IMG/VR virus record: IMGVR_UViG_3300032782_000006
Coordinates: 1 to 64,000 of that record
From: a virus
Strand: one strand, 5' to 3'
Length of the DNA: 64,000 nt
The translations under genes were made by a program, and so were the position numbers. A model generated the notes under the pieces. That model did not search any database, was not told the DNA's origin, and saw only the letters and a list, made by a program, of their open reading frames with translations. Shown here piece after piece: positions 3,001 to 63,374 of the stretch; the stretch's first letter is position 1; each line of letters starts with the position of its first letter.

Positions 3001-5600
3001 AATCCTCCCCATCCGTGACCAAAGTGGTGTCTTCCTCCGTGTCCGCCACCGTGTCCTCCTCTTCCATGTCCTTCATGACCTCCTCTCCCGTGACCACCGT
3101 GTCCGCCTCTTCCGTGTCCTCCGTGATGATGTCTACCGAATAAATGACCTAATCTTCCTCGGCCAAATCCGAGTAACCCTAATCCAGGGAACCCTAACCC
3201 AAACCCACCTAGGCCTAACAACATTCCAAGTAGACCTAATCCTCCAAACTCTCCAAATTCTCCTCTTCCATGATGGTGTCTTCTATGATGTCTACCATGC
3301 CCTCTTCCATGTCCTTCGTGTCCTCCCCCATGACCTCTTCCGTGCCCACTTTCTCCACCTTCTCTTCCGTGTCCACTACCGCCGCCTCCTTCCCCTCCTT
3401 GTCCTTGCCCTCCACCTTCTCCGCCAGGTCCTCCTTGACCTCCTCCTGGCCCTCCTTCTCCACCAGGTCCACCTTGGCCGCCACCGGGACCTCCCATTTC
3501 TCCCCCTGGACCTCCACCCATACCGCCGCCTTCTCCGCCAGGCATTCCTCCACCCATACCTCCCATATCCCCTCCAGGTGCACCGCCTCCCATACCTCCG
3601 CCTCCATCTCCACCGGGCATACCTCCGCCCATACCACCCATATCTCCGCCAGGAGCTCCTCCCATTCCTCCTGACATGTCTCCACCGCCGCCCATACCTC
3701 CGGCTCCGCCCCCTCCAATTCCTTGATCCATCCCGCCGCCCATACCACCTTGTCCGCCTCCTTGTCCACCTTCTCCTCCTTGGCCTCCTCCACCGTGTCC
3801 TCCTTCCATTCCACCATGACCGCCTCTCCCATGCCCTCTATGTCCTCTGTGGCCGCCTCTCCCGTGTCCTCTGTGGTGTCTTCTATGATGAGGGAACCAG
3901 GGCAAAAACTCGTCATCAAGATCTCCGAATAAACCGAGTGGACCTAGTAAACCTCCCATCATTCCGAATGAACCTAGTCCTCCGTGTCCCCAACCTCTAC
4001 CGAATCCGAATGGGCCCCAATGTCCTCTACCACCAAATCCACCTCTACCCCTTCCTCCAAATCCTCCTCTTCCGTGTCCTCCTCTCCCGTGGCCTCCACC
4101 GTGCCTTCCTCTTCCCCATCCAAATCCACCGTGCCCGAATCCTCTTCCCCATCTGCCAAATCCTCCAAATCCGCGACCCCATCCTCCGAGACCCCAGAGT
4201 CCTCCCCCTCCCATCATCATAAGAAGTCCTAATAATCCTAGACCTCCTATGCCTCCTCCTGGTCCGCCTACATCGTCTCCATCATCGTCATCATCATCGT
4301 CATCGTCCCCCCCTCGACCATGTTTCCGACCTTTTTTGCCGTGTTTGCCACCTTTACCATGACCTCCTTGTCCTCCTCCTCCACCTTCTCCGCCAGGTCC
4401 TCCTTGACCTCCTCCTGGCCCTCCTTCTCCACCAGGTCCACCTTGGTCGCCACCGGGACCTCCCATTTCTCCCCCTGGTCCTCCTCCTCCAGGGCCACCC
4501 ATGTCTCCTCCTCCACCCATACCGCCCATATCTCCGCCTCCATCTCCACCAGGCATACCTCCGCCCATATCTCCACCTGGAGTTCCCCCCATATCTCCTC
4601 CACCGCCCATATCGCCCATATCTCCACCGGCTCCGCCTCCCATACCTGGATCCATGCCTCCGCCCATGCCTTGATCCATTCCACCACCCATTCCTCCTTG
4701 ATCCTGACCTCCGCCGCCGCCTCCCTGACCGCCTTGGCCTTGACCTTGATCCTGACCTCCGCTACCTCCTTGCCCGCCTCCACTTTTACCGCCTTGGCCT
4801 CCACCGTGTTTATGATGTTTCTTATGTTTTTTGTGGTGATGATGATGTTTTCTGTGGTGCCTGAATGGATCCCATTCGTCATCTAGATCTTCAAACATCC
4901 CCAACGGTCCTAGAAGACCTCCCATCATACCGAATGGCCCAAATCCGCCAAATCTACCTCTCTCAAACCCTCTTCCAAATCCGAATGGTCCCCATCCGCC
5001 TCTTCCACCTCTACCTCTACCACCAAATCTACCTCCAAATCCACCTCTGCCGTGCCCTCCTCTGCCGAATCCCCCTCTTCCTCCAAAGCCACCTCTACCA
5101 AATCCGAATCCTCTTCCTCCAAATCCTCTACCCCATCTTCCTAACCCTCCAAATCCACGACCCCAACCGCCGAGACCCCACATTCCAGGTAAAAATCCGA
5201 ATCGACCTCTACCCCTCATCATCATGAGAAGGGCTAGGAGACCAAGACCGCCTAATCCTGGACCAGGTCCCTGATCGTCTTCGTCTCCGTCATCATCGTC
5301 GTCTCCTCTTTTACCGTGCTTCCCTCTCTTTTTCTTTTTACTGCCTTTTCCACCACTGCCACTCTGATCTCCGCCCCCTCCTCCTCTTCCAGATCCTCCA
5401 CCACCGCTACCGCTACCATCATCTCCGCTACCACTTCCATCTCCTCCTGATCCATCGTCTCCTGGACCGCCTTGGCCTCCCCCCATTCCAGCGCCCATAT
5501 CTCCTGGACCACCGCTCATATCTCCTCCGGAGCCATCGCCCCCCTTGTCTCCTCCTGATCCATCGGGAGGTGCATCTCCCCAACCGTTATCTAAATCATT
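1..5600 (-). repeat. Gly-rich low-complexity coding region with internal duplications
   Basis: The + strand is extremely C-rich. Near-identical copies occur at ~3410-3510 and ~4380-4478, and similar copies at ~1540-1620 and ~1820-1900. Confidence 0.9.
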
Positions 5601-8600
5601 AGATCCAGTCCAAGCAGTACCTTCTGCTCCAGATCCATCAGATCCTGCGTCTGGAGATCCCCCTCCGCTACCATCAGGATTTTCATAAGTATCTGGAGAA
5701 GATTGAGACTCTGGCGGTTGATCTTGTAATTGTCCTTGCTCGTTACGATATCCACCGTTGTATGCTTGATCTTCGGGAGTATCAGCAGTGTACCCGGCAG
5801 CCCCTTCTCCAGTATCTCCAGCATTGTTCCCTAACTCATCTTGACCATACTGTTGTTGCTGCAACTGTTGCTGTAACTTCTGTTTTTGTTGTTTTTGCTT
5901 TTGCTGTTTCTGTTGGCGTGGCTTCTTTTGCTTCCTCTGTTTTCTTTGTCCACCACCACGACTTCTACTGCCTCTACCTGCGCCACTACCTCCTTTCCCA
6001 CTTCCACTACTACCTCTTTTATGTCTTCCCTTCTTCCCCTTCTTCCCCTTCTTTCCTAGATTGCCAAACATGCCACCTAGGTTACATTTTCCGCTAGCCA
6101 TGAGGTTTCTAGCCATTAACATACCTAATGGACCCATCCTCATTAGCATCAAAATTTGGAATAGACACATCATCCCCCCTAGAGGACTACCAGATCCGAC
6201 TCCAGTCTTTTTAGAACCGGCTAATTTGCCACCTGACCCGTCATCTCCTCCACTGCCACCACTACCACCGGTGCCACCTCCGCGACCACGACCACTTCTT
6301 CCGCTACCACCGCCCCCGCCTCCAGATCCAGTATCTCCTCCATATCCATCGTCTTCATATCCAGACCCGTCATCACCATAACCACTGTATCCTGATCCAT
6401 CATCACCATAGTTAGATCCATAACCAGAGCCATCATCTCCGTATCCACCACTGCCGTAGCCAGATCCATCATCATAAGATCCGGTATCTTGAGACTCTAC
6501 GTTTTCATAAGACTGATCTGGTGGAGTAGATTGAGTTCCAGCTTCTTGATCTGAATTGTCTTCATCAGTTCCAGTTTGAGATGATCCAGAACCACCGCTA
6601 CCAGAACTTCTACCTCCACTTCCACCAGATTCTTCAGAGGAAGAAGCCGCATGTGATGCAGCACTCGCTTTGTCTTTATAAGACTGGCAAGCTTTATCAT
6701 TCGCAGCACAAGTCTTGTTACATGAAGATTCGCAACTGCTAGCACAAGATTTATCCGATTGAGAACATCTGTTGTTACATTTTTCAGCAGTACTTGCTTT
6801 TTTCTCGTAAGATTCTATGACTTTATTGTTTGCATCTACTACAGACTTCCCAGAATCAGACGCTTTTTTGTTAGCATCTTCTGTAGCTTTCCCAACTTTA
6901 TTCTCATTTTCAATAATTTTGCTAGTGGTAGACGAGTTTGACGATAAAATAGTCCCATTATGGGTTTTCACAGTTTCAGTAATCTTGTTGTAAGCGGTAT
7001 TGACTCCGTTACTTACCTCGTTCCACTGTTTTTGAGACGTTTTTGCAAACTGATCATGAGTTTTGTTGATTTCATCTAATTGTTTTTTAGCAGAATCAGA
7101 AACTGCACCCACTACTTGAGAAGACATCTGTTTTTTAGAATTAAGAATATGACCGTCCGTAGTTTTAACATCGGAGACCATCTTCTCATTTGAAACCTTG
7201 AATCCGTTTACTACTTCATCCCAAGTAGTTTTTGCTACTCGTTTTACATCTCCAAGCTCGTTTTTATAATTTTCAATTAAAGTTTTAGCATCAGATGGAA
7301 CCCCTTCAGTAGCACCTTTTGGAGCTTCCTGACCCCCAGTTCTAGATCCATATCCAAACTGGTATTGATCTCTAAAACCAGATGGTCCTTGTTGGTACCT
7401 ACCAGAATCATAGCCTGTAGAGTACCCAGACCCTATTCCAGTACCTCTATATCCACGTCCACCATACCCTACATTATCGAAATAGTTTCCATCTTGATCA
7501 ATTTCGTTGCCTTGATCATCGTAATATTTTCCGTCGGTTCCACGATATGGGGTTCCGTGATATCTTTGCCCTCTTCCTCCCCATCCATCACCTGCGCCTG
7601 TACTTCCCCAATCTCCCATTCTTCTTCGATGTTTTCTGGAACCACTGCCTCCAGCTGGCATCCATTTCCCAGTTTTGGAATAATGGCCTCCATAATCTTG
7701 ATCTTGAAGATCTTTTATATTCGTGATTTGACCATATTTATTATAATGAGGGTAGGGGTCATCAGATTTTCTGAAATTTGGATTGATACTTCCATCTGGA
7801 AGATACTGGTTTTCTGCAATCCATTCATTGTATTCCTGATTATCTCTATCTAGACCAGAATCTTTTTTACTTCCTTTATGATGAGAAGGAGGCAACCCAT
7901 GTTCTCTTAAATCTTGATCACCATATGGATCCCAAGGACTTTTTGTGGGAGAATAATGAGTCCATTTCCCTGTCTTTAGATTTTGGTGCCATCCTTTTTT
8001 ATCAGCCCCCATCTCTACAGGGCCATATGGAGTTTCATGATGCCCTTTTCCCTTAGAAGTAGGGACTTTGGCACCGTGTTGTCTATAATAATCTTCATTA
8101 ATTCCAGACGAATACTCAGACGAAACTTGTTTTGGAAGTTTATGTTCATTACCGTATTTATCACGGTAATACATCTCTCCATCAGCACCAACATAAGCAT
8201 GAGCAGCATGTTCCGCACTGGCTTGACCGGCGTGATGTCTCCCCCCTCCTCCTCCTCTTCCAGGATGTTCCTTCTCAAGTTGTGCTATTTGGTCGGGAGT
8301 CATCCCGATTTTGGATAATAAACTTTCATCATATCCAGATTTGGTAAATGGTGATTTCGGAATTGTAGCTCCATGCCAATCCCCAGTACCAGATTTTCCC
8401 ATTAACTCACGAGTATATGGATTATATGCATATTGTTTGCTATGCCCTCCGCCTTTATGCCCCTGATGTAAATTCTTTTTATTTTGTTCCGCGATCATGC
8501 GGTTGATTTCACTTGCTGGAACCCCTGCCTCCTGCAATTCTTTTACATTATAGCCAGTAGGATCATTGGGGTCATATTCAATATTTGCTCCAGTCCAACC

Positions 8601-11600
8601 GCCATCTTTTTTAGATTTGACTAGTTTATGTGCCCCTTTATCCCATCTATAATTAGCATGACCTTTTTCACCATCCCCTCCTTTCCATGCAGGTACTGTA
8701 CTCCAATCTATATCTTCAGTAGTTTGTGCCTCTCCTGGTTTTCGAGGTGGTGGGGCTTTAATCCCTTTTCCTCCACCGCCACTAGTTCCGCCTGCTGATA
8801 ATCCTGCAGTATGGATAGATGGTGATTCTCCAGATGGGGGTGTTACCCCTGTAGTTCCATATCCTGAGAGGTCTATTTTTGGGACTAAGCTAATATCTCC
8901 AACTGAAATCGGTGGGGAAGTAGTAGTCGGAGCTGGAGTAGTTGGAGCTGAGGTAGTTGTAGTTGTAGGTGTGGATCCAGGCGTTGGCGATACTGATCCA
9001 GTGTACCCTGATTTTTCTAGCTCTTGCATTTTTGCAAGATTCATAGCGTTTCTAATTTTTGGATCAGTTTTTTCAAGAGTAGCTGCAGAAGTGTTATCTA
9101 TACCAGAAGAAGAAACTGATTTGGGTTTAACATCATTTACAAAATTGCCTGAAGCTAACCCTTTAGAATAATTATCAGCCCATTCTACTTGTTTATCCAA
9201 CTGTTTATTCCGCTCTAAAGCAGCTTCATAATTCTTTTTTGCACCTTTTTGAGCATCGGTAAGTTCTGAATCTGGTTTAAGCGCAAATGAGTAGTCTGGA
9301 AGATTGTATTCTTTTTTATAATAATCTAAAGCATCTCCTCGACTTTTACCATATGTAGGACTGACTCCTTGAGCTTTTTTCACTATATCATCATGGGATT
9401 GATATTTACCTGGTGTGATGAGCCCCTTCCCATACAATTCATCCGAACTTAAAGCCTGAGCTCCGCCTCCAGACCCTCCTAACTTTTCTTTAAGGAACCC
9501 CGTGATTTTATCGAGTGCTCCTCCTCCGCCTCCACCACTGGTGGGAGCTGCAGTTGTTCCACCTGCTCCTGGTGTAGTAGCTCCCCCGCCTCCGCCTCCT
9601 CCTAATCCTGCGAGTGACTGTACTGAAGATTTGATTTCTCCTACTTTAGTATCTACTTGAGATTTGAGAGTCGATAACGCAGATGCAACTTTCCCAGGGA
9701 GACTGTTTAATGCTTCGATTAGTTTGTTGACGTAATCAATAATTTTGTTGATTTCTTCGCCTATCTTTTGTGCTAAACCATTAAAGAAATTTTTGACATT
9801 AGTAACAAATGTAGACGCTGCTTTTTGTGCTCCATCCCATGCTTCCCCAAATTTTTGAGCAACTTGAACTACACTCTCTTTTAAATGAGTCCAAACTTCG
9901 TCTAAATCATTTTTAGCAGTCTGGATTCCACCAACTAATGTAGTTTTAAACCCATTGACAATTTGTTCCCATAACGCTGTAACTTTATCTACAAGGTTTG
10001 TTTGGATAGATTCTCTAATCTCATTCCAAACTGTATTGAGAGTGTTCTTCGCATTTTGGATACCGGTTACCAGTTTAGTTTTAAATTCAGAAACTACAGT
10101 TTCCCATGCAGAAGACAACTTTGTTTTTAGAGTGTTAGCTTCAGTAACTAACGAATCCCATATCCCATGTAATTTTTCAGATGCCGCGTTCTTTAAGTTT
10201 GTGACAAACGTTTTAGCTGTGGAAACTACTTCATTAAATCTAGACTCTAATTTTGTTTTTAAGTTCCCTGCTTCAGTAACTATATAATCCCATAACCCTG
10301 TTACTTTCCCAACCGCTGCATCTTTCAGTCTAGACCCAAACTCTTTTACAGTATTTACAATCTCGTTAAATTTGGTAGTTAAACTTGTCTTTAAAGAATC
10401 AGCGTCTTTTGTCAACTGTTCTTTCAGTTTTTCAAAATAATCTATCTTTTGGTCTCCACCAGTAGACGCAGATGCTTTTGGCATCAAATCCGGCATAGAC
10501 GGGACCAATTTTTTAAGGGTATCTCCAAGTGAAATTCCAGAAATTTCTTTTTTAATAGATGCAAATGCGGTTCTCAACTTGTCCGGGATACCTTCAATAT
10601 ATTTGATCCCTTTATCTAACTCCCCAGGTAATTTTTCAAAATCTTTTTTAAGATCTGATAACGCAGTTTTGGTTTCTGGAGAATTCAATACTTTTTGTAA
10701 CCCTTCAAAAGCAGTTTTTAGTAACCCAAAATGTCCTGCAAGTGCTATAGCTCCTACAACAATAGCGCCGCCTGGACCTAAAAATACGGCTAATGCGCCT
10801 AGAGCTGTTGCAGCTAATCCTAGTTGAATAGCCCATTGTTGAGTTGGGTCATCTAATTTTTTGAAATAATCTGCCAACTTTTCTAGGTCTTTCATTAAAG
10901 GTTCAAGAGCAGGAACTACTTGTTTCCCAATAATGTCGGCTACTGAATGCATGTTGGCAAGAAACTTATCCATCCTGCCAGGATCGCTATCCATCACTTT
11001 GTTATATGCAGTATCTAAAGCCTGAGGATTTCCTTCTATTTTTTGTCGAAGTTGGGCAAGTCCTTGTTGACCTATACCTATTTTAGGATCTACCAAACCT
11101 ATAGCTGCACGTTCGTCAACTAAGCCGAACATGTCTTTATAATTAAAAGTTTTATCTTTATTTTCAGGTCTCCCCATCACATTTTGCATGTAACCGATGG
11201 CGCCTTCAAACCCTTGAGGATTCTCAGCTGGATCTACATATTTTGGATCCATTCCAAACCGTTTCATTTCATTCAAGGCAGGCTTAGGAGGTTCATGCAT
11301 TCTTGCATATATCCCTCGTACAAACCTCGCTCCTTGTTTTCCCCGTATACCTAACTTGGATTCCGCTGCGGTTACCGCTGCTTGAGTGCCTATTGGGATC
11401 CCTAATTGCCGTGCAACTAATGCTTGCTCGGCCATTGCATCTTCAGTCTCACTCGGAACTCCTGATCCTTCAATATTGGTAGCATATACCAAATTAAACA
11501 TTTTTTCAGAATTTTCCGCATTTACTGGTAAACCCAATGCCCCAAACATCCCTACATGTTTATTGATCAATTTACTTGCGTCTGGATGTTCTGGACTTGC

Positions 11601-13853
11601 TTTCACAAACTTATTTGCAGATTTTACCATCCCTGGAACTTCGCTTGGTGGTACATTTGCCATCAATGCACCGCCTTGCGTTTGGGCGGAATATTCTGGA
11701 GTCATCCCATAATTTGGGGCTTCGTATAAATTGATCCTTTCAAATTCTGCTTCTTGTTCTGGAGTGAGGTTTGCTGCTGCAGCACCTTGTTTTTCCACAC
11801 GTTTCATTTTTAACCAATCTTCAACTCCGACCCCTTCAACTATTCCTGCTGCAAGAGTCGGCATTAAAGCATGATGGGTAAGGTATCTCCCAAATTGTCT
11901 TGCTCCCCCACTCTCAAATAAAGAGCTAGCTCCTACATCTCCTTCCGTTTCAGCGATTGCTGCCTGAGATGGAGTAATCTCTTTACCCCTATATTGTGTT
12001 GTAGGAACTTTCGCGCCCTTTGTTGTTATATATCCTGCTGCTGCTCCTTCAGCATTGGCAAAAGAGGGACTTCCGGCCGAGGATTCAAGTTCGGATTCTG
12101 TTCCTCTACCCCCTGCTGCAGCCATTGGACTAGTTACATTGATCTCAGCCATTGCTGCATTAAACGCACTGGCATATGCTGCTCCAGCTTCCGCTCCTTT
12201 TGCAGATGCAATTTCAGTCCCAGATTCTAAACTAGTTTCTAAAGAAGCAGAAAACTCTGATCCAAAACCCATTGATTCTAGAAGACTAGTTTTAAAAGAT
12301 TGACCTATAGTTGTAAACCGAGCTCCGAGTTCGGCTTCTGCTCCTTCTAATCCAGAAGAAATCCCTGCCACCATTTCTTTACCGATATCGGCCATTGAGG
12401 CAGTTAAGGTAGTACCAATAGCCTCTCCAATACCAGTAAACTTTGCAACAATCTCAGATTCTGCGCTATCTAACCCAGCAGTAATCGATCCTATAATCTC
12501 TTTACCGACACCAGATAATCCTTCAGATAAACTAGTTCCAATTGCTGTTGCTATTCCACTAAACTTCCCTGCGATCTCAGATTCTGCACCCTCCAATCCA
12601 CTAGTGATAGCCCCTACCATTTCTGGGCCAACATGATACAAAGAATTAATTAACTCTGTACTTATTGCATCTCCTATAGTTTCAAACTTGGCTACAATCT
12701 CAGATTTGGCTCCTTCGACCCCTTCGGCGATTGTAAACGCCATCGTTTCACCGGTTTCAGCTAACGACGTTGTAAGTGATTCTTTGATTGCTGCTCCGAT
12801 CCCACTAAACTTTTCTACAATTTCTGTTTCAGCACCAGATAGTCCAGAGGTGACCTCTGCAACCATTTCAGTTCCAGTGTCCGATAATCCAGTTGTTAAC
12901 GCAGATTTTATTTCAGAATCTATTCCTTCAAACGCGGCTGCAATTTCGGTTTTAGCATCGGCAAGACCACTGGTAATCTCAGTTACCATTTCTTTTCCGA
13001 TATCGGATAACCCTGAAGTCAACTCAGTTTTGATTTCAGTATCTATACCTTCAAACGCGGCTGCAATTTCAGTTTTGGCTTCAGATAACCCAGATGTGAT
13101 CTCAGTTATCATCTCTTGACCAATATCAGCCAACCCTTCTTTTAACTGAGTAGTAATTTCAGCATCGGTTCCCTCAAATTGTGCAGCTATCTCAGTTTTG
13201 GCTTCAGATAATCCACTAGTGATTTCGGAAACCATCTCTTCTCCAACATCAGCTAATCCCTCTTTTAACTGAGTAGAGATTTCAGTTCCGACTCCTTCAA
13301 ATTCAGCAACGATTTCAGATTTAGCTTCGGTAAGACCGCCAGTAATTTCACTGACCATCTCTTCACCGGTCTCAGCTAACCCTTCTTTTAACTGAGTAGA
13401 AATTTCAGTTCCAACACCTTCAAACTCAGCAACAATTTCAGATTTAGCTTCGGTCAACCCTGAAGTGATCTCGCTGACCATTTCTTGACCAGCACCAGAT
13501 AACCCTTCCGTTAGCTGACTAGAAATTTCAGTTCCTATTCCTTCAAAAGTAGAAATGATTTCGGTTTTAACTCCCTGTAACTCAGTATCTAGAGTAGTCC
13601 CGATTTTTTCCCCCACACCAGAAAAAGATGAAGTAAGTTCTTCAGACGCTTCTTTCCCAAACTCTTCAAACTTTAATTTGGCAGAATCTAGAGCAGTTGT
13701 TAACGAAGTAGAGAAACTTTCCCCTACTTCTCTCATTTTGGTCTCGATACTCTCAAGAGATGCGTTAATTTTTTCAGTGTCTTCCGGTATCGTACTTTTT
13801 AGGCCTACGGTAGCGTATATACCGCCTACAAACTGCCCTTCTTCTCCTGCCAT
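1..13853 (-). CDS. Giant tail tape measure protein (>4617 aa, C-terminus outside window) with large low-complexity C-terminal extension
   Basis: ATG at 13853 (MAGEEGQFVGGIYATVGL). The same frame is still open at position 3 (..GATGMLPLGRG), and the ORF track lists no closed ORF in this frame. It has 40-aa helical repeats, a TMP-core-like segment (~11900-10800) and Trp-spaced repeats, and lies directly after the tail chaperones. Confidence 0.9.
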   Translation of the reverse strand, partial: MAGEEGQFVGGIYATVGLKSTIPEDTEKINASLESIETKMREVGESFSTSLTTALDSAKLKFEEFGKEASEELTSSFSGVGEKIGTTLDTELQGVKTEIISTFEGIGTEISSQLTEGLSGAGQEMVSEITSGLTEAKSEIVAEFEGVGTEISTQLKEGLAETGEEMVSEITGGLTEAKSEIVAEFEGVGTEISTQLKEGLADVGEEMVSEITSGLSEAKTEIAAQFEGTDAEITTQLKEGLADIGQEMITEITSGLSEAKTEIAAAFEGIDTEIKTELTSGLSDIGKEMVTEITSGLADAKTEIAAAFEGIDSEIKSALTTGLSDTGTEMVAEVTSGLSGAETEIVEKFSGIGAAIKESLTTSLAETGETMAFTIAEGVEGAKSEIVAKFETIGDAISTELINSLYHVGPEMVGAITSGLEGAESEIAGKFSGIATAIGTSLSEGLSGVGKEIIGSITAGLDSAESEIVAKFTGIGEAIGTTLTASMADIGKEMVAGISSGLEGAEAELGARFTTIGQSFKTSLLESMGFGSEFSASLETSLESGTEIASAKGAEAGAAYASAFNAAMAEINVTSPMAAAGGRGTESELESSAGSPSFANAEGAAAGYITTKGAKVPTTQYRGKEITPSQAAIAETEGDVGASSLFESGGARQFGRYLTHHALMPTLAAGIVEGVGVEDWLKMKRVEKQGAAAANLTPEQEAEFERINLYEAPNYGMTPEYSAQTQGGALMANVPPSEVPGMVKSANKFVKASPEHPDASKLINKHVGMFGALGLPVNAENSEKMFNLVYATNIEGSGVPSETEDAMAEQALVARQLGIPIGTQAAVTAAESKLGIRGKQGARFVRGIYARMHEPPKPALNEMKRFGMDPKYVDPAENPQGFEGAIGYMQNVMGRPENKDKTFNYKDMFGLVDERAAIGLVDPKIGIGQQGLAQLRQKIEGNPQALDTAYNKVMDSDPGRMDKFLANMHSVADIIGKQVVPALEPLMKDLEKLADYFKKLDDPTQQWAIQLGLAATALGALAVFLGPGGAIVVGAIALAGHFGLLKTAFEGLQKVLNSPETKTALSDLKKDFEKLPGELDKGIKYIEGIPDKLRTAFASIKKEISGISLGDTLKKLVPSMPDLMPKASASTGGDQKIDYFEKLKEQLTKDADSLKTSLTTKFNEIVNTVKEFGSRLKDAAVGKVTGLWDYIVTEAGNLKTKLESRFNEVVSTAKTFVTNLKNAASEKLHGIWDSLVTEANTLKTKLSSAWETVVSEFKTKLVTGIQNAKNTLNTVWNEIRESIQTNLVDKVTALWEQIVNGFKTTLVGGIQTAKNDLDEVWTHLKESVVQVAQKFGEAWDGAQKAASTFVTNVKNFFNGLAQKIGEEINKIIDYVNKLIEALNSLPGKVASALSTLKSQVDTKVGEIKSSVQSLAGLGGGGGGGATTPGAGGTTAAPTSGGGGGGALDKITGFLKEKLGGSGGGAQALSSDELYGKGLITPGKYQSHDDIVKKAQGVSPTYGKSRGDALDYYKKEYNLPDYSFALKPDSELTDAQKGAKKNYEAALERNKQLDKQVEWADNYSKGLASGNFVNDVKPKSVSSSGIDNTSAATLEKTDPKIRNAMNLAKMQELEKSGYTGSVSPTPGSTPTTTTTSAPTTPAPTTTSPPISVGDISLVPKIDLSGYGTTGVTPPSGESPSIHTAGLSAGGTSGGGGKGIKAPPPRKPGEAQTTEDIDWSTVPAWKGGDGEKGHANYRWDKGAHKLVKSKKDGGWTGANIEYDPNDPTGYNVKELQEAGVPASEINRMIAEQNKKNLHQGHKGGGHSKQYAYNPYTRELMGKSGTGDWHGATIPKSPFTKSGYDESLLSKIGMTPDQIAQLEKEHPGRGGGGGRHHAGQASAEHAAHAYVGADGEMYYRDKYGNEHKLPKQVSSEYSSGINEDYYRQHGAKVPTSKGKGHHETPYGPVEMGADKKGWHQNLKTGKWTHYSPTKSPWDPYGDQDLREHGLPPSHHKGSKKDSGLDRDNQEYNEWIAENQYLPDGSINPNFRKSDDPYPHYNKYGQITNIKDLQDQDYGGHYSKTGKWMPAGGSGSRKHRRRMGDWGSTGAGDGWGGRGQRYHGTPYRGTDGKYYDDQGNEIDQDGNYFDNVGYGGRGYRGTGIGSGYSTGYDSGRYQQGPSGFRDQYQFGYGSRTGGQEAPKGATEGVPSDAKTLIENYKNELGDVKRVAKTTWDEVVNGFKVSNEKMVSDVKTTDGHILNSKKQMSSQVVGAVSDSAKKQLDEINKTHDQFAKTSQKQWNEVSNGVNTAYNKITETVKTHNGTILSSNSSTTSKIIENENKVGKATEDANKKASDSGKSVVDANNKVIESYEKKASTAEKCNNRCSQSDKSCASSCESSCNKTCAANDKACQSYKDKASAASHAASSSEESGGSGGRSSGSGGSGSSQTGTDEDNSDQEAGTQSTPPDQSYENVESQDTGSYDDGSGYGSGGYGDDGSGYGSNYGDDGSGYSGYGDDGSGYEDDGYGGDTGSGGGGGGSGRSGRGRGGGTGGSGGSGGDDGSGGKLAGSKKTGVGSGSPLGGMMCLFQILMLMRMGPLGMLMARNLMASGKCNLGGMFGNLGKKGKKGKKGRHKRGSSGSGKGGSGAGRGSRSRGGGQRKQRKQKKPRQQKQQKQKQQKQKLQQQLQQQQYGQDELGNNAGDTGEGAAGYTADTPEDQAYNGGYRNEQGQLQDQPPESQSSPDTYENPDGSGGGSPDAGSDGSGAEGTAWTGSNDLDNGWGDAPPDGSGGDKGGDGSGGDMSGGPGDMGAGMGGGQGGPGDDGSGGDGSGSGDDGSGSGGGGSGRGGGGGDQSGSGGKGSKKKKRGKHGKRGDDDDDGDEDDQGPGPGLGGLGLLALLMMMRGRGRFGFLPGMWGLGGWGRGFGGLGRWGRGFGGRGFGFGRGGFGGRGGFGRGGHGRGGFGGRFGGRGRGGRGGWGPFGFGRGFERGRFGGFGPFGMMGGLLGPLGMFEDLDDEWDPFRHHRKHHHHHKKHKKHHKHGGGQGGKSGGGQGGSGGQDQGQGQGGQGGGGGGQDQGGMGGGMDQGMGGGMDPGMGGGAGGDMGDMGGGGDMGGTPGGDMGGGMPGGDGGGDMGGMGGGGDMGGPGGGGPGGEMGGPGGDQGGPGGEGGPGGGQGGPGGEGGGGGQGGHGKGGKHGKKGRKHGRGGDDDDDDDDDGDDVGGPGGGIGGLGLLGLLMMMGGGGLWGLGGWGRGFGGFGRWGRGFGHGGFGWGRGRHGGGHGRGGHGRGGFGGRGRGGFGGRGHWGPFGFGRGWGHGGLGSFGMMGGLLGPLGLFGDLDDEFLPWFPHHRRHHRGHGRGGHRGHRGHGRGGHGGMEGGHGGGGQGGEGGQGGGQGGMGGGMDQGIGGGGAGGMGGGGDMSGGMGGAPGGDMGGMGGGMPGGDGGGGMGGGAPGGDMGGMGGGMPGGEGGGMGGGPGGEMGGPGGGQGGPGGEGGPGGGQGGPGGEGGGQGQGGEGGGGSGHGREGGESGHGRGHGGGHEGHGRGHGRHHRRHHHGRGEFGEFGGLGLLGMLLGLGGFGLGFPGLGLLGFGRGRLGHLFGRHHHGGHGRGGHGGHGRGGHEGHGRGGHGGGHGGRHHFGHGWGGFPGLLGLEELGLMGGLGMMGPLGLLGLGGMGGLFGFPGLFGGFGREFHHHHHMHGGRGRGGRGGHEGHGGGHEGHGGREGRGGHEGHGGHHGGMGGRHHHHHHVFGFPGLFGPFGMMGGLLGPLGLLGMGGIGMMGLLPLLLGLGRFGWGRHHHGHHHGHEGHGRGGRGGHEGGRATHGRGDHGRGEGGGRGGEHRGGMRGGHGRGERGEHGRGGWGGVLGLGFGPLGMMGSLGLGGLGLLGILGLGGLGGLGMFGGIPGLHRLFSDIFGGHERHGGRHRGGREHGRFGREFHGEHGRMGGRGGGEHGGEHGGEHGRGGEHGRGGRGHEGHGRGEHGFGHGRWGFPGFMGGMFGPLGLMGMMGPLGLMGGLLGPLGMMGGLGMGMMGLLPLLMGLGGFGRWWHHFGRHHHGRGGHHGRGGGRERGEHGRGGEGGHRGHHHHHHGFGFPGFLGGMLGPLGLMGGLLGPLGMMGGLGMGMMGLLPLLMGLGGFGFGWGRHHHGRHHGGRRGHHGREGGGGEHGEHGRGHEGHGRGGHGFGHGRWGFPGFLGGMMGLGGLLGGLGGLGMMGGMLGPLGLLMGMGGLHGRHGFGHHHHGRGWGMFSPFGMMGGLLGPLGLMGGLGFGMMGLGGLGMMGLGGMGMFGGMGGLLALMMGLGGWGRWGRWGRHHHGGRRGHGRGGEHEGGREHGRHEGHDMFRHGMGFGWGRGGFGFGGMMGPLGLLGMGGMMGGLMGLSLLGGMGIVSLAQMLLGGGMGLMGLGGFGMFGFGRGRWGWGHGRGRWGRDHDRGREHWHGREERGGREGGRGRGRGEIGHGRGDRAEREKEGRDGRTAAGRGPATHGKGGGDLKDLLGKPGGARDVSGFGFHGILGGFGPFGGGGWMGGIGGLGGGMGYGGFGGLGLSSLGGMLDPIGLYSMLGMLGLGGMGMVGMGGRGRGFEFSPLTGLLAGMHHGERGGGHFGGRIASPFHTAHPFGGGMGSFGGLGSFGGTFRGATGMLPLGRG
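12300..13560 (-). repeat. About ten 120-bp (40-aa) tape-measure repeats
   Basis: The unit FEGVGTEISTQLKEGLAETGEEMVSEITGGLTEAKSEIVAE recurs every 120 nt. Confidence 0.9.
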
Positions 13854-13868
13854 CGTTTTTACCATCCA

Positions 13869-33694: not shown

Positions 33695-35011
33695 TTATTC
33701 ACGATTATCCTCCAATTCGTCATTACCTATAGTATCCTGAGTACAACTTTCAAACATTGCTGAAAACTTTTTGATGATATCACAATAAGTCAGAGTTCCA
33801 TATCTTCCTAATTCATAAGATGAAAATTTTGCAGGAGAATCAGGTAATAAATGGTAATCTCCATTCCCAACATATTGAGGATTTGCAAAAATAGCAGAGG
33901 AATCATGAATAGTATCTGGATTATTGAGATGATTGTTATAAAAACAGTTTTCAGAGCATGTGAGTTCATATCGAGTACTAATAAGATTAACTATTCCTGC
34001 ACCGGAATAATGGCCTTTTGAATTCCCTTCTTTAGTATTAGAGATAATGTTTCTTTGAATTGAAGCTGATAATTTGGATAATGTAGAAGACTTAAGGTAT
34101 TCTCCAAAAAGAATACCATACCCTTTACAACTATCGATTGTGTTGTTAAGGATATCTACTGCGGTGAACCCATCACAAACAATCCCTCCAACTCCAGCAA
34201 TACCATTACTAGCCGGCATTATCCCACAGTTTGTGATCAAGTTGTTTTTGATCGAAACGTTTTTAGCGCAAGTGGTTTCTCCACCACCGATTAACCAGAT
34301 TCCAGGACCAAACACGTTTTGAAGAGTGTTTCCGTAAATCTGGATGTTAGAAGTATAAGCACCAGGATCAATGTTTTCTAGCTGGATGGCGGGGGCGTAT
34401 GCAAAATTTGTGCCAATGCATACATTACTAAAAATAGACACGTTGCTAGAATTCCGAACACGAATGGCATTATTGGATCGCATTTGGATATGGTTGTCAA
34501 ATATAGATACATAGTTACAATTGCGCAAATGAATCCAATCGTGACCACCCATAGCACCCGTGCATTCTGAAAATTCGAGATTATACGAATTGAGAAATCG
34601 GAAATAGTCCCCTTCATTATATCCACCTGCTAAGTCGTGGAATTTTGATTTTGAACAATTGGTTAACCCTATAAAATTATGAAACCCTTTCCCATGGTCC
34701 TCAGGAGTTAGGTTTTGATTATTGTAATTCCCGTCAAAGTGGATTCCGCTAATATCCAAATTAGAAATTGTTCTATCTTTTTGTCCAAGAATAGGGATCT
34801 GGATCCCGAATATTGATGGTGGTGCATCGTCCATCAGCGTCCATGTAACGTCTGCATCACATGATATTTTAGTTCCAGAATTGAGTTTGAGTAAAGAATT
34901 GATTAAGTAAGTACCCGAAGTACAATGTAACTCAGAATATTTACAATCAGTGCCAACCTGATCTAGAGATTTCTGAAGTTGATGGTTAGGTTTTATATTT
35001 AAAATAGCCGT
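33695..35011 (-). CDS. Disaggregatase-related right-handed beta-helix protein (start probably upstream of ATG 34834)
   Basis: DGN..HGKGFHN, GHD, RSNNAIRVRNS, GPGIWLIG, VGGIVCDGF, ENCFYNN and DYHL motifs resemble Methanosarcina disaggregatase-related proteins. The frame is open and family-like for 59 more codons upstream. Confidence 0.75.
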   Translation of the reverse strand, partial: TAILNIKPNHQLQKSLDQVGTDCKYSELHCTSGTYLINSLLKLNSGTKISCDADVTWTLMDDAPPSIFGIQIPILGQKDRTISNLDISGIHFDGNYNNQNLTPEDHGKGFHNFIGLTNCSKSKFHDLAGGYNEGDYFRFLNSYNLEFSECTGAMGGHDWIHLRNCNYVSIFDNHIQMRSNNAIRVRNSSNVSIFSNVCIGTNFAYAPAIQLENIDPGAYTSNIQIYGNTLQNVFGPGIWLIGGGETTCAKNVSIKNNLITNCGIMPASNGIAGVGGIVCDGFTAVDILNNTIDSCKGYGILFGEYLKSSTLSKLSASIQRNIISNTKEGNSKGHYSGAGIVNLISTRYELTCSENCFYNNHLNNPDTIHDSSAIFANPQYVGNGDYHLLPDSPAKFSSYELGRYGTLTYCDIIKKFSAMFESCTQDTIGNDELEDNRE

Positions 35012-38956: not shown

Positions 38957-39604
38957 ATAAAAATTTATTGCGCAAGTGACTTACATATAGGGTTACCTCA
39001 CGCAAACTATCCGAAGATTCTAAACTTTTTTAAGAAAGCTCAGGAAGATGCCGATGAGGTAATACTGTGCGGCGACATATTTGATTTGTGGGTTTGTGAA
39101 GAAAGGGAGATTTTGACTAAAGAACCTATGAGAAGTTGTTATCACGAACTTGTAGAACTAGCATACAAGGTTCCAACTACCTTGATATGGGGAAATCATG
39201 ACTTTAATCTGAAACATGAACTAATAATCCCTGATGTAATACCAGTAAGTGACAGGTTTACAAAAGACAATATCCATTACTGTCACGGATGGAGATTTGA
39301 TGCGCAACAACGTTTTGCGTATCCATTATACCATTGTATTACAGAACTGTGCCCGAAATTGTATCATAAATATTATAGATTTAAAAACGATATCAATTGT
39401 GACCCTAACGAAGATTCGGAATGTTGGTTAAAAATATTGAACGAAGCTAGAAAACTAGTTGACAAAAAAAAGTTTAGATTATTAGTGATGGGGCATACTC
39501 ATACCCCTCACATTGATGATAAAGTTGCAAACTGTGGAGATATGGTGGAACATTCATCATATGTGATTATAGAAGATGGTGTTCCTAGATTAATGGAAGA
39601 TTAA
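38957..39604 (+). CDS. Calcineurin-like metallophosphoesterase (LpxH-like), probable ATA start
   Basis: SDLH, GDIFD, GNHD, HG and GHTH motifs. The first two lie upstream of the ORF-track start. Confidence 0.85.
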   Translation: MKIYCASDLHIGLPHANYPKILNFFKKAQEDADEVILCGDIFDLWVCEEREILTKEPMRSCYHELVELAYKVPTTLIWGNHDFNLKHELIIPDVIPVSDRFTKDNIHYCHGWRFDAQQRFAYPLYHCITELCPKLYHKYYRFKNDINCDPNEDSECWLKILNEARKLVDKKKFRLLVMGHTHTPHIDDKVANCGDMVEHSSYVIIEDGVPRLMED

Positions 39605-40752: not shown

Positions 40753-41535
40753 TTAGAACCCTGTTTCTTGTTGGACAACCCAGAAATCTGTAGAGAGTTT
40801 TGTGCTTGCTAAATACTGATATGGGAGTGTAAAGTAACCTTTCATACCCCAACCAGTACCCCAAGAGTTTCGTACAATAAATACTCCTTTAGAATCATCG
40901 TATCCTACACAGCAGACGGCATGACCACCGAGCAATTGTTCATGAGATTTTGGCATCGGGACGATACCAGTTTGTTCTACCTGAGTAGTTTCAAAACTAG
41001 AATAAACAGAGAAACCAAACACGAACGGGAGTCCAGATGCTAAACAGTTTTTCATACTGTTAAGATCGTTCTGGTTATGGAACGAAGAGATTCTATAATA
41101 ATTTGTTAATTTGTGGTTAACAGCATCAGAATAAGCATTGGATGGAGGTTTTGTAAATACTTTGGATTCATCATACGGCCAAAGAATCTCATTACAAACA
41201 CCCTGAGACATTAAACATTTAATACCGTCTCGAAGTGAAGCTCCCGAATCCGAGTTTGTAGAATGTTCAAGAGCGCGTTCATTGTAGTAAATAAATAGTC
41301 TACTAACAGTCTCATAATTTGGATCTTTGTCTTTAAGTTCCAAAAACTGAATTGCACCAGAAAGAGCATGAGCAGTACAACTTCCCAATTTTCCTTGATC
41401 TTCAATTGGGGAATCTGAAGGCCGGAGATCTACTGCCGGTGGCAATGGACCAGTAAATATTTTACAATAAGTGAAATCTCTACTATCTAAGTTATCTCTT
41501 CGCCAGCCATACCTGCGTTCATTTTGACATGTCAT
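40753..41535 (-). CDS. Papain-family C1A cysteine peptidase
   Basis: DQGKLGSCTAHA, GGHAV and VRNSWG catalytic motifs. Confidence 0.93.
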   Translation of the reverse strand: MTCQNERRYGWRRDNLDSRDFTYCKIFTGPLPPAVDLRPSDSPIEDQGKLGSCTAHALSGAIQFLELKDKDPNYETVSRLFIYYNERALEHSTNSDSGASLRDGIKCLMSQGVCNEILWPYDESKVFTKPPSNAYSDAVNHKLTNYYRISSFHNQNDLNSMKNCLASGLPFVFGFSVYSSFETTQVEQTGIVPMPKSHEQLLGGHAVCCVGYDDSKGVFIVRNSWGTGWGMKGYFTLPYQYLASTKLSTDFWVVQQETGF

Positions 41536-61911: not shown

Positions 61912-62145
61912 TTATAATGTGAGTATTAACATTCCCGCTGCAAAAAATATGATTTGGGATACAAATAATACTACAGTTTTTACCACTGGATTATTTGTGA
62001 TAAACAACCCACAAAATATAAAATCTCCAATCAGCATAATTATTAAAATTATCGGCACTTTCAAATCCGAGGGAATCGCTGATAATCTGTTCACACCTTT
62101 GCATTTTTTAAATGGTTGATTTTCGGTCTCATGTGGCAAAATCAC
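61912..62145 (-). CDS. Two-TM membrane protein
   Basis: Two hydrophobic segments. Confidence 0.6.
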   Translation of the reverse strand: MILPHETENQPFKKCKGVNRLSAIPSDLKVPIILIIMLIGDFIFCGLFITNNPVVKTVVLFVSQIIFFAAGMLILTL

Positions 62146-62759
62146 ATCTCCAACAATTTTAGTATCCCATCCTCATCTGATAATCTGAGATGTGCAGAGC
62201 CTACAAAATGGTGGTAATCCCCCCACTGATACCCTAGGGTTCGTGCCAACCAAACTTGAAAATCACAAAATCCCTTACAGTCCGTCATGAATGCAATAAA
62301 CATCTCATTACTTCGGAAAATTGTTGTGAGCTCAAGTACCTCGTCACGTATCAAAATATTTATACCAGTACAACATGGAATCTCTTTCTTGCTCCCCACA
62401 TTTTTAGGGTGGAACACTGGTAAATAAGCCCTTCTGGTATTAGGATTTTGCCTAAGTAGTCTAATTACTTTCGGAAGTGCGTCTTCTTCCCTTATTTGCC
62501 ATCCATATGAGTAATCGAACGCATCTGCTTTTTCTTTTGCTGTTTTCTCGGTGATCAATCCTTTTGCAAAATCTCTATCTAAAACTTCAGTAAGTCCTTT
62601 TTCAGCACTCTGCCGATTTTTCCCGGTCAAATGAAGTAAAAGGTTCTTTACCTCTAACGTTTTTTCTTCTCTTTGATCCTCGACCAATTCCCCATTTTTA
62701 TAAATATACTCTACAACTTTTCGTCTAATGTTTGCTATAGAGTTTCCATAAAATTCCAT
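62142..62759 (-). CDS. thyA: Archaeal-type thymidylate synthase fold enzyme, possibly dCMP-modifying
   Basis: YSYG, TRRA, IPC, FRSN and SAH motifs. Confidence 0.85.
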   Translation of the reverse strand: MEFYGNSIANIRRKVVEYIYKNGELVEDQREEKTLEVKNLLLHLTGKNRQSAEKGLTEVLDRDFAKGLITEKTAKEKADAFDYSYGWQIREEDALPKVIRLLRQNPNTRRAYLPVFHPKNVGSKKEIPCCTGINILIRDEVLELTTIFRSNEMFIAFMTDCKGFCDFQVWLARTLGYQWGDYHHFVGSAHLRLSDEDGILKLLEM

Positions 62760-62765
62760 GACTCC

Positions 62766-63374
62766 TCAATTTTCAAAATTACTAAATATTCTCCAGAGGA
62801 CGCAATATAAAGGTTCTTTCCACTCCAGTTTTAATTCAATTATTTTTTGGTAAACATCCATTGGGAGAATTATATTTTTTCTATGGCTAAAGTCCCCATT
62901 TTGTTGTATAATACTTTTAATTGAGGATGCATATAGCCGATATGGAATAGTAGGGATAGAGTCTGGAGAATAATCTTGAGATTCTGGAGTATGGTATAAA
63001 TCCCAATAATCTAACAGAGTAGCTAATTTATTATTCATCGAAAGTTCATGAGGAGCTAATCGACTAATTCTAAATCCAGTCCATTCTTTTAAAGAAACTA
63101 TATAGCTATCATATAATCTATATTTACTAGGTGGTAAAATATCAGTTTGTTGCAATATTTCGGTAAGTTCATCTTGTTTATTTTCACAAAACTCTAGTAA
63201 AATATGCAATTTTTCTTCAAAAGATATTTCGTCTGACGATATATTTTCTACTCTATCTACAATGTTAGATGTCAATCGTAAATCTATTTCAACCTCTCTA
63301 GAATTTCGTTTATACTCTGTCATATACTTCCATTTCTGTTTTAGATTCATCAAATCACCTTTTCTCCAATCCAT
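62766..63374 (-). CDS. Hypothetical protein with C-terminal RHH-like domain
   Basis: KNIILPMDVYQKIIELKLEWKEPLYCVLWRI resembles 60963-61094. Confidence 0.7.
   Translation of the reverse strand: MDWRKGDLMNLKQKWKYMTEYKRNSREVEIDLRLTSNIVDRVENISSDEISFEEKLHILLEFCENKQDELTEILQQTDILPPSKYRLYDSYIVSLKEWTGFRISRLAPHELSMNNKLATLLDYWDLYHTPESQDYSPDSIPTIPYRLYASSIKSIIQQNGDFSHRKNIILPMDVYQKIIELKLEWKEPLYCVLWRIFSNFEN

Follow-up and report, generated by a model that had tools for sequence, protein, structure and literature searches.

Among the main ways in which phages counter restriction and CRISPR is the replacement of cytosine, at the nucleotide level, by 5-hydroxymethylcytosine, 5-methylcytosine, 5-hydroxycytosine or their sugar derivatives. 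In classical thymidylate synthase (TS), the C-terminal tail closes the active site for hydride transfer, and an Asn-to-Asp exchange, as is said to have been found by Liu and Santi and by Hardy and Nalivaika in 1992, converts TS to a deoxycytidine monophosphate (dCMP) methylase. A short homolog of TS (ThyA), here named P0001, is encoded in a stretch of 64,000 nucleotides (the window), which covers positions 1 to 64,000 of the IMG/VR virus record IMGVR_UViG_3300032782_000006. As judged from its sequence, P0001 very probably acts on a cytosine nucleotide, and the function tentatively put forward for it is one-carbon transfer to C5 of dCMP, with a dCMP 5-hydroxymethylase as the likeliest form. It resembles T4 gp42 or the phage XP12 methylase, yet appears to belong to a separate short, virus-restricted lineage beside archaeal ThyA.

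Exchange of Asn177 (numbering of E. coli ThyA) for Asp switches TS to dCMP in the N177D and N229D mutants, and Asp177 tracks cytosine-modified viral contigs in MetaGPA, in which position 147 is the second site linked to modified DNA (PMC8670742). The same Asp is the cytosine determinant in the T4 dCMP hydroxymethylase gp42 and in MilA, the cytidine monophosphate (CMP) 5-hydroxymethylase of mildiomycin biosynthesis (PMC6400193, PMC13326640). Ser167 and Arg126' (from the partner subunit) mark the users of deoxyribose, and the Ala and Lys of MilA permit ribose (PMC5175136). Asn in place of Asp169 marks the flavin/O2-dependent 5-hydroxy-dCMP synthases, all confirmed by experiment and taking their oxygen from O2, while a bulky Leu143 is associated with methyl products and an acidic residue there with hydroxymethyl or other, non-methyl ones (PMC13326640). 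In T4 gp42, Asp145, three residues before the catalytic Cys, was proposed as the activator of water, and the D145N mutant is inactive (PMC6400193). A TS homolog paired with a kinase is the standard modified-base module (PMC13326640).

P0001 scored 43.9 bits against the Pfam family Thymidylat_synt (PF00303; curated cut-off 24.3) and also matched PHROG 160. An AlphaFold (AF2) model built from 29 homologs reached a predicted local distance difference test (pLDDT) score of 95.4 and a predicted template-modelling (pTM) score of 0.91, and as modelled, P0001 is a real and well-folded member of the TS superfamily. Residues 9-205 of the model spanned residues 1-222 of E. coli ThyA only, and its last 42 residues (223-264) were without a counterpart. 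Residue mapping was done by phmmer to chains of the Protein Data Bank (PDB), by MAFFT with E. coli ThyA and T4 gp42, by hmmalign, and by hhalign profile to profile (probability 100%, E 4.5e-45), the sequences of E. coli thyA and T4 gene 42 being taken from annotated records. MAFFT, hmmalign and hhalign were concordant from residue 80 on, and the N-terminal half was less certain.

An earlier note on this DNA, made by eye, had quoted two segments of the open reading frame (ORF), RSNEMFIAFMTDCKG (residues 149-163) and SAHLR (residues 188-192), and had placed an Asp at the base-specificity position. Both segments were present as quoted, and Asp160 was equivalent to E. coli Asn177 and T4 gp42 Asp179 in all four sequence alignments. 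The contrast drawn there with archaeal ThyA was also borne out, the Asn-type short relatives reading RS(N/H)D...A...N and mostly SAHIY. The superfamily core of Cys, general-base Tyr, phosphate-binding Arg quartet and Ser was kept in P0001 (Table 1), and the canonical ThyA features Asn177, hydrophobic Leu143, His147 and C-terminal closing segment were absent. With Asp160 and a residue other than His at position 147, a cytosine base would be expected, and Ser150 and Arg109 in place of the Ala and Lys of MilA would point to dCMP rather than CMP. That Asp selects a cytosine nucleotide, as the note had held, is well supported by the alignment and by the conservation described below, and it agrees with the experimental literature (PMC8670742, PMC13326640, PMC6400193).

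Of the 2,846 matches obtained when 1.8 billion representatives were searched exhaustively with HMMER, the best 27 were short (204-229 amino acids) and all carried Asp. They were followed by very many Asp-type proteins of 270-345 amino acids with a gp42-like signature, most of these long matches showing D/E..CT.RSND..G..D..H.Y, with a few short Asn-type proteins interspersed; long Asp-type homologs of the gp42/MilA kind are widespread. Asp at the position of residue 160 was invariant in 17 aligned clade members and in 14 of the 14 related viral or metagenome loci, which were drawn from IMG/VR and metagenomes of the JGI. In an hmmalign tally of 161 rows, including the best 150 matches of the search, Asp stood at the Asn177 position in 152, and the Leu143 position was taken by Asp in 101 and by Glu in 44. 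By virtue of this clade-wide conservation, Asp160 is neither a chance substitution nor a sequencing error.

In a quick maximum-likelihood tree, the short proteins and the AfhB-like sequences fell into one group (Shimodaira-Hasegawa-like approximate likelihood ratio test, SH-aLRT, 96), in which P0001 was grouped with the Asn-type short enzymes at SH-aLRT 92. The Asp clade of P0001 comprised 21 rows (support 93); this clade, another Asp clade and archaeal ThyA of the Asn type formed an unresolved trichotomy. The Asn/Asp state changed at least three times on the tree, and a topology holding all Asn rows together was marginally rejected (approximately unbiased, AU, test, p 0.042, for groups named after the tree had been seen). 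Two pattern scans of limited sensitivity found no clade member in 185,579 species genomes and met only a 25%-identical protein of Spirochaetota, a scan of viral contigs gave no match, and the nearest clusters of the ESM Atlas were 82-89% viral. The short clade is known only from viral and metagenome contigs and is in this sense virus-restricted, its absence from cells not being proven.

The known relatives were ordered differently by structure and by sequence comparison. The closest solved structures were those of flavin/O2-dependent dCMP 5-hydroxylases, and the nearest solved chain by sequence was MilA, which was found first with P0001 (phmmer, E 4.8e-12, above every TS) and also with the clade profile (1.3e-22), there followed by AfhB and then by the N229D mutant of L. 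casei TS; this mutant, solved with dCMP (1njc), was the top classical TS chain for the profile. MilA shares Asp at the Asn177 and Leu143 positions, but it prefers CMP via Ala176 and Lys133', where P0001 has Ser150 and Arg109, and it is a protein of 318-342 amino acids with a large C-terminal extension.

T4 gp42 and P0001 have in common the TS fold, the catalytic Cys, Asp as the base-specificity residue, an acidic side chain three residues ahead of the Cys, an RSN(D/E) motif that keeps the Asp169/Asp171 position acidic, the deoxyribose-type Ser and Arg, and the lack of a TS-like closing tail. They differ in that identity is only about 21%, P0001 is at least 40 residues shorter with an N-terminal half built differently, and Tyr83 or Ser84 stands for Ser94, Cys130 for Thr, Ala156 for Gly and Arg192 for Tyr218; P0001 also lies in a separate clade, and its virus is without a gp1-type kinase, a gp56 dCTPase and glucosyltransferases. 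The dCMP methyltransferase of phage XP12 and the N177D/N229D mutants are alike in their Asp-driven use of dCMP and serve as the model for a 5-methyl-dCMP product, but Leu143, Trp83 and the C-terminal tail, none of which P0001 has, are still present in the mutants. End-to-end alignment was obtained with the methanogen-type short ThyA of about 205-225 amino acids, such as ORF59 of Methanobacterium virus PhiF1 ('putative methanogen-type thymidylate synthase'), and P0001 was aligned over its full length with this protein and with the short relatives P0037, P0038, P0055, P0118 and P0142. The YxYG motif, the Glu before Pro-Cys, RSND and the Ala at Gly173 are shared with this type, whereas it has Asn for Asp160, mostly Tyr for Arg192 and Leu or Met for Cys130, and is presumed to make thymidine monophosphate (dTMP).

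Addition of a one-carbon unit at C5 is the most likely reaction of P0001, by which the virus would probably make a C5-modified cytosine nucleotide. One-carbon transfer is preferred to hydroxylation because Glu152 is acidic, O2 chemistry is ill-suited to a virus of a wetland methanogen, and relatives adjoin NrdD, the anaerobic ribonucleotide reductase (RNR); the title of PDB entry 1bjg states that D169N fails to open the ring of methylene-folate. Hydroxymethylation is ranked first, at somewhat less than an even chance, with methylation a close second; it is preferred because Glu126 is like T4 Asp145, Ala74 is small, the closing tail is missing, MilA is nearest by sequence, and Asp or Glu fills the Leu143 position in most of the tallied rows. 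Glu126 was invariant among the close relatives, and Ala74, likewise invariant, stood in an ungapped alignment at the position of Trp83 (Val85 in T4), which controls the access of solvent. The Asn-type short enzymes are shorter by 4-5 residues around this region, before the YxYG motif.

In a mechanism modelled by homology on T4 gp42 and MilA, a homodimer would bind dCMP via Arg30, Arg109', Arg110', Arg149 and Ser150, Asp160 would recognise and protonate the cytosine, and Cys129 would attack C6. The methylene of a reduced methylene-pterin (tetrahydrofolate, or the tetrahydromethanopterin/sarcinapterin of methanogens), held by Glu152, would be transferred to C5, with Tyr85 assisting in the removal of the C5 proton. 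The exocyclic methylene would be hydrated and not reduced, the water being activated by Glu126. Host kinases would raise the predicted product to the triphosphate, a step for which some relatives may use a thymidylate-kinase-like enzyme of the virus, and the host replisome would put the modified cytosine into viral DNA, where it might act against restriction.

Several observations weigh against this scheme. The counterpart of the catalytic Glu58 (Glu60 in T4), which opens the methylene-pterin ring, was not placed with confidence, since in the hhalign comparison the helix that carries it falls where the short family is gapped, and the invariant Asp63, in helix 56-69, is only a guessed candidate for it. 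At the place of the Ser94-x-Tyr96 pair of T4, in which a Ser (or Thr) is paired with a Tyr two residues on, P0001 reads Tyr83-Ser84-Tyr85; the Ser is not conserved, the clade having Tyr throughout at residue 83 and Ser, Ala, Gly or Thr at residue 84. Tyr209 is replaced by Arg192, and a change of Tyr209 to Arg, Lys or Ile occurs in all short Asp-type members but one and in almost none of the other groups. The Asn-type short archaeal enzymes share Glu or Asp at position 143 and are also without the C-terminal tail, and the rule for position 143, derived from bacterial and phage enzymes, may not be transferable to the short lineage; because these relatives are presumed to make dTMP and share the Glu, methyl and hydroxymethyl products are not separable by sequence.

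The gene content of the virus adds to these points. The earlier note had pointed to kinase, polymerase and glycosyltransferase genes that might lie beyond the window, but none was found in the complete virus genome, nor was a gene for any other deoxynucleoside monophosphate kinase or for a dCTPase/dUTPase. No P-loop protein besides the terminase was present in the complete genome, and no protein matched PF02223 (thymidylate kinase). The route to the triphosphate and the means of excluding dCTP are therefore not visible, and modified dCMP would have to rely on phosphorylation and polymerisation by the host in competition with dCTP, so replacement of cytosine in the viral DNA would probably be partial. 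Good incorporation in T4-like and RB69-like systems depends on a cognate kinase (PMC13326640). Counts of palindromes did not clearly set C-containing words apart from AT-only ones, the C-containing CCGG being mildly avoided (z -4.6) and TTAA having z -5.5.

The closest competitor of a hydroxymethylase is a dCMP methylase, possible though rather unlikely, in which the exocyclic methylene would be reduced by a pterin hydride to 5-methyl-dCMP, giving 5-methylcytosine in viral DNA. An exchange of Asn for Asp alone turns TS into a dCMP methylase (cited in PMC8670742; 1njc), and the nearest relatives of presumed function are the Asn-type short archaeal TS, which share with P0001 the short architecture, Glu126, Ala156 and Phe148, so that the same chemistry on another base would be the most economical change. 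The absence of a glycosyltransferase and of a dedicated kinase fits a small modification, which host enzymes may, by our own reasoning, tolerate better. On the other side, Glu126 and probably Ala74 replace Leu143 and Trp83, the residues by which water is excluded in classical TS, the C-terminal tail with its general role in hydride transfer is missing, a dihydropterin reductase would be needed for recycling of the cofactor, and sequence searches place hydroxymethylases above TS. A 5-methyl- or 5-hydroxymethyl-dCMP product, as the earlier note had suggested, is what the two best readings predict.

An ordinary TS by which dTMP is boosted, with Asp tolerated for deoxyuridine monophosphate (dUMP) in this lineage, is improbable. 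It would agree with the neighbourhoods of the homologs, in which classic genes of deoxynucleotide supply were found: a gene of the thymidylate-kinase family just upstream of the homolog in loci L011 and L023 and NrdD just downstream of it in L022-L025, with a class II RNR as well as a dUTPase in L017 and a nearby dCMP deaminase in L020. No second PF00303 gene accompanied the homolog in any of the 10 virus records checked, the ThyA genes of Methanoperedens elements are annotated as plain TS in the literature, and the genome is AT-rich (31-36% GC in this region). Judged by its neighbours, the enzyme belongs to nucleotide-pool metabolism, and these surroundings are compatible alike with modified-base synthesis and with plain dTTP supply. 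However, all natural Asp-type enzymes characterised so far act on cytosine nucleotides, the preference of Asn-to-Asp mutants shifts from dUMP to dCMP (PMC8670742), the clade was not met in cellular genomes by the two scans and true archaeal ThyA is of the Asn type, and His147, the second position associated in MetaGPA, is also replaced.

Still less probable is an enzyme on a cytosine nucleotide whose product is not for DNA, either for depletion or rerouting of host dCMP or for a detour to dTMP via deamination of 5-methyl-dCMP. The lack of kinase, dCTPase and polymerase genes in the virus, the dCMP deaminase of L020 and the mild avoidance of C-containing palindromes would fit such a use. No precedent for a viral TS homolog with a non-DNA product is known to us, and the kinase genes that adjoin the homolog in L011 and L023 argue for onward phosphorylation.

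A flavin/O2-dependent dCMP 5-hydroxylase of the AfhB (phage HY126), RB69 gp48 or DLP3 gp80 type, with 5-hydroxy-dCMP as product, which the earlier note had not considered, is very improbable in spite of its structural closeness, the sister relation of the AfhB-like group to the short clade in the tree and the Asn at the Asp169 position of clade member L013, because P0001 has Glu152 (RSNE) against the RSQN of AfhB and the Asn of all tested 5-hydroxy-dCMP synthases, the oxygen of these enzymes comes from O2 and the likely host is a strict wetland anaerobe with NrdD carried by relatives, and no arabinosyl- or glycosyltransferase gene was found in the virus.

A wider proposal than hydroxymethylation by P0001 alone, on balance doubtful, is that the clade is a virus-restricted offshoot of short ThyA which (hydroxy)methylates dCMP with methylene-tetrahydromethanopterin or -sarcinapterin, the change of Tyr209 to Arg, Lys or Ile reflecting an altered grip on the nucleotide that helps. 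It would be the first replacement of cytosine in the nucleotide pool, before replication, in archaeal viruses, done with one viral gene and the kinases and polymerase of the host; in the open literature searched, no report of cytosine modification at the nucleotide level in archaeal viruses was found. The ThyA genes on archaeal mobile elements are now read as plain thymidylate synthases, and if the clade modifies dCMP, many 'ThyA' annotations of archaeal viruses would be wrong. Viruses of wetland and digester methanogens may in that case carry modified DNA by which sequencing is biased and host defences are evaded, and the enzyme, as a hydroxymethylase or methylase of pyrimidines that is compact and may use methanopterin, would be of biotechnological interest. 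The clade also tests the transfer of the published residue rules (positions 143, 169 and 177) to a distant lineage.

Members and relatives of the clade showed further variation. In L013 (822-1484, same short Asp clade, 33% identity), the motif reads RSNN, with the Asn at the Asp169 position that is the signature of 5-hydroxy-dCMP synthases, and an N4/N6 DNA methylase lies directly upstream of the homolog; given this Asn, the clade of P0001 may not be uniform in chemistry. The product of L006 (2863-3525) of Agathobaculum phage AB434P2 (OP172633), for which the annotation reads 'deoxyuridylate hydroxymethyltransferase', carries Asp in place of Asn177 as well as of Leu143 and would more likely act on dCMP. 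In the ESM Atlas, short TS-like domains with template-modelling scores of 0.89-0.90 to P0001 occur, chiefly in Cyanobacteriota, in fusions with PterinBD-DUF4346 and with MtrA-like domains, a hint that a separate module for pterin binding may serve short TS enzymes. PF14251 (the pterin-binding DUF4346) was present in the control genomes of M. jannaschii and M. acetivorans and was not found in the virus genome.

The window belongs to a complete IMG/VR virus record of 77,567 bp with direct terminal repeats of 127 bp. Its structural genes include a T4-type large terminase, a Mu-like portal and a lambda-type tail tube protein, and a papain-like protease, a metallophosphoesterase and, outside the window, an N4/N6 DNA methylase are also encoded. 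The main clue to the host is given by two beta-helix proteins with a 'disaggregatase-related' domain of Methanosarcina (Table 1). The sole sequencing run containing the virus was a DNA metagenome from a wetland, which was probably its source, and no RNA run was listed for the stretch. The earlier note had spoken of an archaeal virus, and such a host is plausible because of the two disaggregatase-related proteins, an ERCC4-type nuclease, the wetland source and the position of homologs beside MCM and PCNA-like genes; from this indirect evidence, a complete tailed virus infecting a Methanosarcina-type methanogen is probable.

P0001 is an internal gene of a minus-strand operon, which also encodes the ERCC4-type nuclease, a ParB-like protein and small regulator-like ORFs. 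Its Shine-Dalgarno sequence overlaps the TGA stop (62768-62766) of the gene upstream, which indicates translational coupling of the two within the operon. A kinase function of this 202-residue upstream neighbour was ruled out by the absence of a P-loop motif. The features are listed in Table 1.

Table 1. Features of the P0001 gene, its active site and related loci of the virus (window positions unless given as genome; primes denote the partner subunit)
Feature	Position	Strand	Remarks
CDS of P0001, short ThyA-fold enzyme, 205 amino acids	62142..62759	-	ORF confirmed at exact coordinates
Shine-Dalgarno GAGGAG	62762..62767	-	2 nt before the ATG at 62759; sequence read directly
Upstream operon neighbour, 202 amino acids	62766..63374	-	No family match; C-terminus by eye like nearby small ribbon-helix-helix-like ORFs
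Downstream ORF, 77 amino acids, hydrophobic	61912..62145	-	GTG start overlaps the P0001 stop (GTGA); looks like two transmembrane helices by eye
Asp160, codon GAC	62280..62282	-	E. coli Asn177, T4 gp42 Asp179; base-specificity residue; all four alignments
Cys129, codon TGT	62373..62375	-	E. coli Cys146; catalytic nucleophile, Pro-Cys motif; invariant in both alignments inspected
Glu126, codon GAG	62382..62384	-	E. coli Leu143, T4 Asp145; three residues before Cys129
Glu152, codon GAG	62304..62306	-	E. coli Asp169, pterin ligand
Arg109 and Arg110, codons AGA AGG	62430..62435	-	E. coli Arg126'/Arg127', phosphate grip from partner subunit
Arg192, codon AGA	62184..62186	-	At the position of E. coli Tyr209 (3'-OH ligand)
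Tyr85			E. coli Tyr94, general base
Arg30			E. coli Arg21
Arg149 / Ser150			E. coli Arg166 / Ser167
His190			E. coli His207
Cys130			E. coli His147 (non-His in P0001)
Beta-helix protein with Methanosarcina 'disaggregatase-related' domain	33695-34834	-	One of two; E 4e-23 and 2e-5
Second beta-helix protein with Methanosarcina 'disaggregatase-related' domain	genome 71890-76914	-	
N4/N6 DNA methyltransferase	genome 67222-67986	+	PF01555, E 4.8e-44; outside the window

Neighbours of the homologs in the related loci included MCM, TnpB, terminase and N4/N6 methylases, together with PCNA-like matches that were weak and under the Pfam cut-off. Homologs of the N4/N6 methylase lay near the ThyA homolog in four further loci (L013, L016, L017 and L023), and this methylase is a second, DNA-level route of modification in these viruses. 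Eight hidden Markov models of neighbour-gene clusters from the related loci gave 0 matches in the virus of P0001, the enzyme and the N4/N6 methylase being all that is shared. The NrdD of L024 (10643-15157) has 1,504 amino acids against 743 in L022 and L025, and it is probably intein-bearing, because domains for intein splicing and LAGLIDADG domains were met among the neighbours in a pooled Pfam scan.

Some other parts of the virus genome were also unusual. An open frame of giant size, with over 4,621 codons, runs over positions 3-13865 of the window (minus strand), and it appears to continue across the 127-bp terminal repeat to about genome position 76963, through an ORF of 185 amino acids at genome 76963-77520; its 3' third (window 1-6000) has a GC content of 54-56%, compared with about 38% in other parts, and its GC skew is close to -0.46. 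A papain-family cysteine protease (40753-41535, minus strand; PF00112, E 1.9e-17) stands in the tailed-virus structural module. For the calcineurin-like metallophosphoesterase (38957-39601, plus strand), the Pfam match begins at profile position 1 only with an ATA start, and no ATG, GTG or TTG precedes its motif. Between 45500 and 49600, next to the terminase gene, there is no ORF of at least 100 amino acids on either strand and GC is somewhat higher (0.42-0.45), and this stretch of 4 kb holds either small genes or non-coding elements.

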